Positions 44,455-47,222 of a stretch of 63,782 bases of DNA are shown here, piece after piece; position 1 is the stretch's first letter; each line of letters begins with the position of its first letter. This stretch comes from Deltaproteobacteria bacterium. Its GTDB lineage: Bacteria > Desulfobacterota > Syntrophia > Syntrophales > UBA2210. The stretch covers positions 1 to 63,782 of the forward strand of contig JAFGGB010000112.1 of assembly GCA_016930775.1 (NCBI GenBank). The letters run 5' to 3'. Made by a program: the position numbers and the translations under genes. Below the pieces are notes generated by a model. The model was not told where the DNA came from. It did not search any database and saw only the letters and a list, made by a program, of their open reading frames with translations.

Positions 44455-45648
44455 TTATTCAATAATGGAGCTGATGACGCCGGCGCCGACGGTCCTGCCG
44501 CCCTCGCGAATCGCAAACCGGAGCTGCTCTTCCATAGCGATAGGAGTAATAAGCTCGGCCGTCATTTCCACGTTGTCGCCGGGCATTATCATTTCGACTC
44601 CCTCGGGCAATTGAATCGAACCCGTCACATCGGTGGTCCTGAAGTAGAACTGGGGACGGTAACCGTTAAAAAATGGCGTGTGGCGGCCCCCTTCTTCCTT
44701 CGTCAGAACATAGACTTGGGCTTTGAATTTGGTGTGGGGCGTAATGGAGCCCGGTTTAGCAACAACCTGGCCACGTTCCACTTCCTCGCGCTTTGTGCCC
44801 CTGAGGAGCACGCCCACGTCGTCGCCGGCGCGGCCTTCGTCGAGGGTTTTCCGAAACATTTCAACCCCGGTGCAAACCGTTTTAAAGGTAGGACGGATTC
44901 CAATGATTTCAACCTCATCTCCCGTTCTGACAATGCCGCGGTCCACCCTGCCCGTAACAACGGTGCCACGACCCGAGATCGTGAATACATCACCGATGGG
45001 CATCAAAAAGGGCTTGTCAAGATCGCGTACCGGCTCGGGAATAAAAGCGTCAACAGCATCCATGAGCTCGAAGACACACTTGGCATCCGGAGAGTTAACG
45101 TCGTCGGTTTCGAGGGCCTTCAGTGCGGAGCCCCTGATGATCGGAGTGTCGTCGCCCGGAAAGTTGTAGCTTGAGAGAAGTTCCCTGAGTTCCAGTTCAA
45201 CGAGATCGAGAAGCTCTGGATCATCAACCAGATCGACCTTGTTCATGAAAACGACAACGGAAGGAACCTGCACCTGACGGGCGAGCAGGATGTGCTCCCG
45301 CGTCTGAGGCATAGGACCGTCTGATGCGGCAACGACAAGCACTGCCCCATCCATATGGGCGGCGCCGGAGATCATATTCTTGATGTAGTCGGCGTGACCC
45401 GGACAATCAACGTGAGCGTAATGACGCTTCACCGTTTGATACTCTACGTGAGCTATATTAATAGTAACACCCCGTTCCTTCTCCTCGGGGGCATTGTCGA
45501 TCTGATCGAATGCCTTGTATTCGGCAAGACCCTTCTTTGCAAGGTGCTTGGTAATCGCCGCCGTAAGCGTTGTCTTTCCGTGATCAACGTGACCGATGGT
45601 GCCTATATTAACATGCGGTTTAGTTCTCTCAAATTTTTTCTTGGCCAT
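44455..45648 (-). CDS. tuf: Elongation factor Tu
   Basis: [37 protein letters not shown]. Confidence 0.99.
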
Positions 45649-45659
45649 ATCAATTACCT

Positions 45660-46320
45660 CCTTCGGTTAAAATGGATAATCGCTCTCGCTATAATTTCTT
45701 GCACGCTGCTCGTCCGAAGCGTCTCCTCTCAACAATCTTTCGGGCCAAGTTTTAAAGAGGGCGCTGTCACGTAAAAAAGCATTTCCTTTTCTTCCTCGAC
45801 TTCGGTCCAACAGCGATGGCGTCGACGGCTTCCTGAAATCCAGGGGCTCACATCGAATCTGACGCCTGCCGTCACAGCGCCTGCGACTAGCAGAGCTTCC
45901 ACACTATCCTGTCGAGACTGCTGCGACCGTCGCCGGCAGAAAATCTGCGATACCGTTAATGAAAGTTTCCCCCTTTGACGACATCTGCGAGACACCCGTC
46001 GTCCGCGGACCTGCTTTTCAATTTCCGTTACGAACCCTGAGCGCTCAGGCCGTCTCTATGGAAACTTCACTATGACCGGTCGCATCAATCAGATTGACGA
46101 GACGGTCCGCCCAGGAACAAACAATGGCGGCCGTCGCACTCGTTCTGCCGCTTTTCTGTTCCTGCTCCATCCAGTCCTCGACGGTGGAACCGTCTCGGAC
46201 TTCAACCCTCTTGCTGGAAACCTTCGTACAGTAGAGTATCCGCCCCGTCGTCGTTCCGGCATCTAAATGGTCCATAATGCCGATATTGCGGACCCTATGT
46301 AAAGGAACAGATCGTGCCGC
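45660..46320 (-). pseudogene. fusA (pseudo): Eroded, internally deleted elongation factor G relic
   Basis: Canonical rpsG-fusA-tuf slot. Translates ARSVPLHRVRNIGIMDHLDAG--TTTGRIL...DWMEQEQ...VNLIDATGH...ETA*ALRV; GCG at the start position; VQEIIARA-like C-terminal trace before tuf; about one third of normal length. Confidence 0.9.
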
Positions 46321-46364
46321 GACGCACCATCGATCACCACAAGCTGACCAATAGATTGCGCCTA

Positions 46365-46850
<486 letters not shown>

Positions 46851-47222
46851 TTACTTCGGCCTCTTTGCGCCGTATTTCGATCTTGACTGCTTCCGGTCCT
46901 GAACACCATGAGCGTCGAGCGTTCCTCGAACGATGTGGTAGCGGACGCCCGGAAGGTCCTTAACGCGCCCCCCCCTTACAAGTACAACGGAGTGCTCCTG
47001 AAGATTGTGCCCTACTCCTGGTATATAGGACGTGACCTCATAGCCGCTCGTAAGACGAACGCGGGCCACTTTACGTAAGGCCGAGTTTGGCTTCTTCGGT
47101 GTCGTTGTATAGACGCGGATGCAGACGCCGCGGCGTTGGGGACATCCGGCAAGGGCCGGCGCCTTTTCCTTTTTCCGAACCTTCTGTCTACCCTTGCGAA
47201 CCAGTTGGTTAATAGTCGGCAT
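46851..47222 (-). CDS. rpsL: 30S ribosomal protein S12
   Basis: [26 protein letters not shown]. Confidence 0.99.

Follow-up and report, generated by a model that had tools for sequence, protein, structure and literature searches.

A relic of the canonical EF-G gene in the str operon of a deltaproteobacterium that carries a mitochondrial-type EF-G pair elsewhere in its genome

The window, that is, the whole stretch of DNA analyzed here (63,782 nucleotides, from an uncultured bacterium of sediments that resembles sulfate reducers), carries on its minus strand the genes rpoC, rpsL and rpsG, a gap of 716 nt (45649-46364), and then tuf, rpsJ and the S10 operon, in this order. According to the list of open reading frames, rpsL occupies 46851-47222 and rpsG, the intact gene for ribosomal protein S7 (156 aa), occupies 46365-46835. 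On the other side of the gap, the intact tuf gene for EF-Tu (397 aa) lies at 44455-45648. The rpsG genes in 38 related genomes had 70-79% identity to that of the window, and tuf was 87-90% identical to tuf of the relatives. In the str operon, the usual upstream neighbor of fusA, the gene for EF-G, is rpsG. In seven relatives with an intact fusA and with tuf in the fetched locus, the interval between rpsG and tuf was 2164-2219 nt, and about 1.45 kb of the original fusA is missing overall at the locus of the window. An earlier note on this DNA had described an EF-G gene decayed to a relic within an otherwise intact array, with about 0.72 kb between rpsG and tuf in place of the roughly 2.1 kb of fusA. 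Our measurements agree with both statements: the genes from rpsL to rpsJ are intact, and the remnant between them matches EF-G.

The gap consists of four parts, all on the minus strand. The spacer from rpsG to the former start of fusA (46321-46364) was delimited by the aligned start codon and by the point, at nt 43-47 of the gap, where the DNA begins to resemble the 5' regions of fusA genes in relatives. The relic itself, codons 1-101 of the canonical fusA (subfamily EFG I), lies at 46018-46320 and was placed by the TIGR00484 profile, a profile of orthologues, an alignment and a tree. The middle of the gap (about 335 nt, 45683-46017) presumably consists of fusA DNA beyond recognition; neither protein nor DNA searches matched it significantly to EF-G genes or to the corresponding gaps in relatives. 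The last part (45649-45682) is a conserved spacer with a Shine-Dalgarno sequence (AAGGAGG) directly before tuf. In blastn, this spacer was 87.5% identical over 32 nt to the sequence between fusA and tuf in genomes G001 and G010, and 91.7% identical over 24 nt to the gap of G013. The upstream sequences of 32 loci showed that the same element stands after intact fusA in relatives. The DNA-level partners of the gap are confined to nt 43-240, which correspond to the 5' end of fusA (68-73% identity), and to nt 683-716, which are the spacer and the ribosome-binding site before tuf. A search of the gap against Rfam gave no match, and a repeat search showed that its sequence is unique in the genome.

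When the gap is read in one frame, it gives AARSVPLHRVRNIGIMDHLDAG--TTTGRILYCTKVSS...DWMEQEQKSGRTS...NLIDATGHSEVSIETA, followed by a stop, ALRVRNGN and a second stop, and a fuller rendering between TTTGRILYCTKVSS and NLIDATGHSEVSIETA includes EDWMEQEQKSGRTS. The search of the whole genome with TIGR00484 matched the relic at 45988-46317 (positions 2-113 of 691, E 9.0e-27, 94 bits), with two TGA codons inside the match. The 91 open codons reached 88.4 bits (E 3.1e-25), whereas the cut-off of the family is 659.4 bits. The relic thus falls far short of a full-length, 691-position match above this cut-off. In tblastn, three intact str-operon EF-Gs of relatives were 51.5-54.5% identical to the relic over 99 residues (E 3e-29 to 2e-31), and a profile of seven intact orthologues matched it at positions 1-101 of the profile only (score 104.4, iE 2.1e-34). 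It was clear that the G-domain is still readable for about 100 codons, as had been noticed before.

The lesions in this N-terminal part became visible in the alignment to eight intact orthologues. The start position of the relic is GCG (46318-46320), where all eight orthologues have TTG or GTG; the intact str-operon fusA genes of these relatives (L121-L128) start with TTG in five cases and GTG in three, and never with ATG. Two codons, those for Gly and Lys, are deleted from the P-loop, which reads DAG--TT. Switch I reads SGRTS for RGITI, and DATGH stands for DTPGH. A TGA at 46045-46047 aligns with the Arg of ERSLR, and a second in-frame TGA lies at 46018-46020. Neither the GTPase motifs nor the start codon of the relic is intact, and the alignment confirmed every N-terminal lesion listed in the earlier note (the GCG start, the loss of the P-loop Lys, SGRTS, DATG and the TGA at the Arg of ERSLR). 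The same note had also read weak traces of later domains in the gap, and these could not be substantiated. The best match of the profile of seven intact orthologues outside the N-terminal piece scored -4.8 bits (iE 0.23), a score that background matches also reach, on either strand and in gaps from other genomes. The proposed traces SRR...EMLFYVTA and VQEIIARA found no match in the profile search or in a relaxed tblastn of the gap, and the pairing of GETFINGIADFL with GELHLEIIVDRL had an E value of about 1 in tblastn, which is not significant.

In order to clarify which EF-G gene the relic had been, we compared it with the intact EFG I genes of relatives and with two full-length paralogues of its own genome, here called A and B and described below. 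The relic was 52-55% identical to EFG I, 44% to its own B copy and 40% to its own A copy. It has IGIM, TTT(T)ER/GR and MEQEQ in common with the intact orthologues, and the other paralogues are without these residues. In an 82-row FastTree the relic fell inside a nine-row EFG I clade with a support of 97-99 and a branch length of 2.25, and in a 13-row IQ-TREE the branch that separates EFG I and the relic from the B clade had a support of 100/100. The AU test, on about 102 columns, did not reject a tree in which the relic joins the B clade (delta lnL 3.7, p 0.28), and for this reason the assignment to EFG I rests on several lines together. Intact EFG I stands directly after rpsG in eight relatives, and an A- or B-type gene stands there in none, so that synteny settles the assignment in practice. 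Taken together, the best tree, the higher identity, the signature residues and the synteny indicate that the relic descends from the str-operon fusA of subfamily EFG I.

The substitutions of the relic give an impression of its age. Among the codon positions at which all eight intact orthologues agree, the relic deviates at 19 of the 72 first and at 25 of the 91 second positions, which corresponds to a Jukes-Cantor distance of about 0.33 per formerly invariant site. In leave-one-out controls with the intact orthologues, the number of differences was 0-6. The third codon positions invariant in the eight intact genes numbered only 10, and synonymous sites in these orthologues looked too diverged for an estimate of dN/dS. 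At the level of residues, the relic keeps 42 of the 72 that are invariant in these orthologues. By these counts the relic is to be regarded as an old pseudogene. The loss is old, and the earlier idea that the lineage was caught losing its operon copy therefore does not apply. Within about 100 codons we found one in-frame deletion of 6 nt and no frameshift, which may suggest a period of relaxed selection in which the gene may still have been translated, before it was truncated.

The search with TIGR00484 found three full-length EF-G family genes over the cut-off in the genome, together with one fragment at a contig end. The first of them, L001 (A; contig C116), codes for 695 aa, and its best score among solved structures was with the mitochondrial EF-G1 chains (787 bits), as compared to 697 bits with Thermus EF-G. 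Its segment VKGKDGVGATMD aligns to EVHDG---AVMD, that is, L001 has a three-residue KDG insertion in switch I, and this insertion is also kept in the consensus formed from the 32 A rows. The domain-IV tip loops, which serve translocation, are also kept in L001 (QTGG.GQ and H.VDSS). In trees made without mitochondrial sequences, the A clade was separate and had a stem branch of 0.9-1.4. With both the KDG insertion and the affinity to mitochondrial EF-G1, L001 is by its sequence an spdEFG1/mtEFG1-like gene.

The second gene, L002 (B; contig C106), codes for 682 aa. Its best relatives of solved structure are canonical EF-Gs (Thermus EF-G, 771 bits), and its score with mtEFG2 was 496 bits. In the tree, the B clade was sister to EFG I (96), with a long, fully supported branch between them. 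In the 39-row consensus of clade B, QSGGRGQ is lost (now lGdkkH), H..VDSS is lost (now regest), and the C-terminal tail is absent. Since L002 lacks the domain-IV tip motifs and co-occurs with an spdEFG1-like gene, it appears to be spdEFG2-like. By composition, C116 and C106 lie near the center of the bin, and their linkage to the contig of the window is by binning and composition only. The gene for RRF (frr) was found in the genome as well. The third full-length gene, L003 (on contig C73), is EFG II-like. The fragment L004 (contig C160, cut at the contig end) is also EFG II-like and has a similar downstream ORF. The contigs of L003 and L004 are compositionally peripheral, with a GC content of 0.477 and 0.497 and tetranucleotide distances at the 83rd and 91st percentile, and one of the two genes may come from a co-binned relative.

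These findings place the lineage among the bacteria with split EF-G ('spd'), as the earlier note had suspected, because an spdEFG1-like gene (L001) and an spdEFG2-like gene (L002) are both present. The same note had concluded that one paralogue must perform both translocation and recycling. This conclusion is not needed: since there are two full-length candidates, L001 with an intact domain IV and L002 with a degenerate tip, and frr is present, a single paralogue with both jobs need not be assumed. The simplest and most likely reading would be the usual split, in which A translocates and B recycles with RRF; we draw it from the motifs and from the studies of Borrelia and of mitochondria to which PMC3150367 refers.

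The locus was then compared among 41 genomes of the same family and order, the genome of the window (G000) included, as the earlier note had proposed; rpsG was located in 39 of them. An intact fusA followed rpsG in eight of the 39 (G001, G005, G007, G010, G025, G027, G030 and G032, the last cut by a contig end), and a recognizable relic was found in two (G000 with 716 nt and G002 with 926 nt). The other 29 had only a gap of 62-374 nt without EF-G remains. Intact, relic and empty states were thus all seen. An A-type gene was present in 33 of the 41 genomes, full-length in 32 and cut at a contig end in one; it was not found in G001, G005, G007, G010, G025, G030 and G034, and the incomplete genome G022 is counted neither way. 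The A type was thus not found in six of the eight genomes with intact fusA, and in the other two, G027 and G032, it occurs together with EFG I. The completeness of G027 is 100% and its contamination 2%; for G032 the values are 85% and 5%, so that the coexistence is less certain in G032. The B type was full-length in 39 of the 41 genomes, and it stands beside an intact str-operon EFG I in at least seven of eight. In G034 neither a str-operon fusA nor an A-type gene was found. This genome has a divergent full-length EF-G (L159, G034:C6:1-2320; branch 0.64) outside the I, A and B clades, which may represent another route of replacement.

The second relic lies in another genus of the same family (L023, G002:C155, nt 1969-2897 of the locus), where 926 nt separate rpsG and tuf. 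Of the profile, positions 200-280, 297-414 (with a frameshifted duplicate reading) and 626-689 are still present in this relic, and its N-terminus is lost. In the same comparison, the G002 relic kept 84 of 118 invariant residues and the relic of the window 40 of 67. In an RpoB+RpoC tree of 31 genomes (10 were excluded because their contigs fell short of rpoB/rpoC or were not retrieved), G002 grouped with G005 and G007, which keep EFG I, with a support of 93. In the same tree G000 grouped weakly (80 SH-aLRT) with two genera that have empty gaps, and the trees of B proteins disagree on the position of G000. The relic of G002 arose independently of that of G000. Gaps of intermediate size were seen in L012 (G013, 374 nt), L014 (G006, 317 nt) and L028 (G011, 342 nt), without recognizable EF-G remains. 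These three gaps share with the window only the last 24 nt or so, and they may be relics decayed past detection. A profile search found no relic in 23 other gaps of relatives, nor in six more.

On the RpoB+RpoC tree the loss of EFG I required six changes, of which at least four were forced by well-supported branches. For the A type, the trees used required four changes. Within the family, the A genes fit one vertically inherited clade (AU p 0.83), and the EFG I genes all lie on the same side of a branch with a support of 69/80. From these trees we infer an ancestral coexistence followed by reciprocal loss, with transfer as the alternative. Beyond the order, 17 of 80 loci from named genomes of many phyla had rpsG followed by tuf after 24-160 nt, and five loci were too short to tell. 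Fifteen of these 17 are labelled as Desulfobacterales, Desulfobacteraceae, Deltaproteobacteria or Thermodesulfobacteriota, and the other two as Gammaproteobacteria and Proteobacteria; no relic was found in the 17 short-gap loci. The nearest named rpsG (74%) came from a 'Deltaproteobacteria bacterium' MAG. A metagenome scan with the relic peptide of 91 codons returned 44 loci, the best at 56%, and all of them were ordinary EF-G, with no close kin of the relic. In one Thermoanaerobaculia MAG (L047), the fusA after rpsG was matched in four pieces over a full-length interval, which may reflect either frameshifts of the assembly or true decay.

We think it very probable that the gap is a non-functional, old pseudogene remnant of the str-operon fusA (EFG I), displaced by the A/B pair elsewhere in the genome. 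Several other explanations have to be weighed against this reading. An intact fusA might have been collapsed or mis-joined in the metagenome assembly, a danger that the earlier note had itself pointed out. The genome of the window is indeed a fragmented metagenome bin of 231 contigs (96.9% complete, 4.2% estimated contamination). We therefore compared 45200-46900 with the Logan contigs of four runs, a comparison of contigs in which depth and rare variants are invisible. In the likely source run (X1), a single contig of 1580 nt covers 45380-46900 with zero differences, and it is the sole contig that crosses the whole gap unbroken. However, a contig of X2 covers 45951-46900 with six differences, contigs of X3 cover 46001-46426 with two differences and 45568-45730 with none, and contigs of X6 cover 45628-45990 with two differences and 46043-46208 with one. 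These three runs come from studies other than that of the likely source, and jointly they tile tuf, the relic and rpsG at about 99% identity, including parts of the gap and both of its junctions. The structure is thus upheld by contigs (not reads) from three other studies with 0-6 differences, and no contig of the four runs joins the locus to an intact fusA. Moreover, a collapse cannot create dozens of substitutions at sites invariant among orthologues, a lost start and two stops, and the TIGR00484 search of the whole bin found no EFG I-class match elsewhere. Misassembly as the cause of the relic is largely refuted by these data, and we consider an artefact hardly conceivable.

A second view would be that the canonical fusA simply moved, a view that the earlier note had tied to finding a canonical fusA elsewhere. 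In this case L002 on C106 would be the same gene and would perform both jobs. L002 is indeed nearest to canonical EF-G among the solved structures and sister to the EFG I clade, and according to the text of PMC3150367 some deltaproteobacterial EF-Gs are ambiguous between EFG I and spdEFG2. Against this, the branch between the B clade and EFG I is long and fully supported, B coexists with an intact str-operon EFG I in at least seven genomes, the B consensus has lost both domain-IV tip motifs and the C-terminal tail, and the identity of L002 to EFG I in relatives is no more than 56-58%. Relocation thus appears quite unlikely to us. We regard as slightly less likely still that the remnant was kept for work in cis, be it that tuf and the S10 operon use it as their promoter or leader or that it is a structured spacer, or that it gives rise to a small protein. 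In E. coli, promoters of tufA lie inside fusA, and in the window a promoter-like TTTACA-18-CATTAT, known from consensus matches only, lies at 46303-46274 on the minus strand. The RNA of the gap (45649-46364, minus strand) had a folding energy of -267.4 kcal/mol as compared to -244.6 +/- 8.5 for only 20 shuffles (z -2.68), an ORF of 76 codons is left at 46045-46275, and the stump has persisted undeleted to about 0.33 substitutions per site. Yet 29 of the 31 relatives without fusA get by with 62-374 nt in which nothing of EF-G is left, and the conservation is limited to the last 35 nt or so before tuf. The ORF has no Shine-Dalgarno sequence and its P-loop is destroyed, Rfam gave no match, and the relic of G002 keeps entirely different parts of the gene. 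The relic of the window, as judged from its sequence, appears to show no sign of remaining function.

If the gap is a displaced pseudogene remnant, its history can be considered as follows. The ancestor of the family, which would have been Thermodesulfobacteriota-like, probably had EFG I in the str operon and both A (spdEFG1/mtEFG1-like) and B (spdEFG2-like) elsewhere. With two proteins of the translocase type, one of them would have been redundant, and lineages may have differed in which one they kept. In the lineage of the window, the str-operon EFG I would have been dispensable because the mitochondrial-type pair of paralogues was present elsewhere in the genome. EFG I would then have lost its start codon and P-loop and gained stops, and deletions would have removed about 1.45 kb. 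What was left would be the first 100 or so codons, about 335 nt that can no longer be recognized, and the original tuf spacer with its ribosome-binding site. The stump is probably an untranslated spacer in the rpsL-rpsG-tuf message, and tuf would be translated from its own retained Shine-Dalgarno sequence. Translocation would most likely be performed by the A protein (C116), and RRF-dependent recycling most likely by the B protein (C106).

We speculate further, and hold this only tentatively as a reading that may or may not prove right, that EFG I and the spdEFG1-like protein are interchangeable translocases which coexisted ancestrally and were sorted reciprocally and repeatedly (six changes of EFG I and four of A), while B was kept in essentially every genome. 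If this is true, B has its own non-redundant role and is not simply one half of a subfunctionalized pair, and the two relics together with the two genomes that carry both genes mark a still ongoing turnover of an essential translation factor. In any case, the order supplies natural genotypes (canonical only, both, relic, none) with which comparative and biochemical work can test whether EFG I and spdEFG1 are interchangeable and whether the spdEFG2-like factor has a role of its own. EF-G is usually seen as single, essential and immovable, and the stump is physical proof that the operon copy existed and was then discarded. It reveals no new mechanism. The operon copy would have been discarded after the mitochondrial-type paralogue took over, and the stump would represent a rarely preserved stage of a known replacement.

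In spirochaetes, planctomycetes and deltaproteobacteria, the spdEFG1/spdEFG2 pair has taken the place of EFG I, as Atkinson and Baldauf reportedly described in 2011, and the displacement of EFG I in 'spd' bacteria itself has been known since that year. The text of Margus, Remm and Tenson 2011 (PMC3150367) describes four EF-G subfamilies, of which spdEFG1 is defined by the KDG insertion in switch I, and states as a rule that spdEFG1 and spdEFG2 occur together in the absence of EFG I. The mirrored distribution is repeated in the text of Atkinson 2015 (PMC4342817). The former text also mentions that pseudogenes are marked in its Figure 2, and a frameshift in Mycobacterium bovis is named in it. 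In the text of the literature searched, to which figures and supplements may add more, we found no description of a fusA relic in a str operon. As far as the text of PMC3150367 goes, our lineage is alike in its subfamilies, in an A gene with the KDG insertion and affinity to mitochondrial EF-G1, and in the A and B genes carried by genomes without EFG I. In contrast to that text, the str operon here still contains a physical remnant of the gene that was displaced, one order shows EFG I only, both, relic and none, and the B type, unlike what the rule of co-occurrence states, stands beside EFG I in at least seven of eight genomes. The remnant in the operon, all stages within one order and the persistence of B beside an intact EFG I are what the present analysis adds.

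A division of labor between two EF-Gs was reportedly found by Suematsu (2010) and Tsuboi (2009) for EF-G1 and EF-G2 of Borrelia burgdorferi and for human mtEFG1 and mtEFG2. Our pair resembles these pairs in that one paralogue has a conserved domain-IV tip and the other has not, with a single RRF. It differs from them in that the present lineage is known from sequence alone and in that B scored far better with canonical EF-G (771 bits) than it did with mtEFG2 (496 bits). Finally, the loss of the start, the stops, the large deletions and the absence of conservation in relatives are all features of ordinary pseudogene decay after redundancy. What sets the present case apart from such decay is that the gene codes for a normally essential and universal translation factor in the most conserved operon, and that its stump survives at an unusually high divergence.
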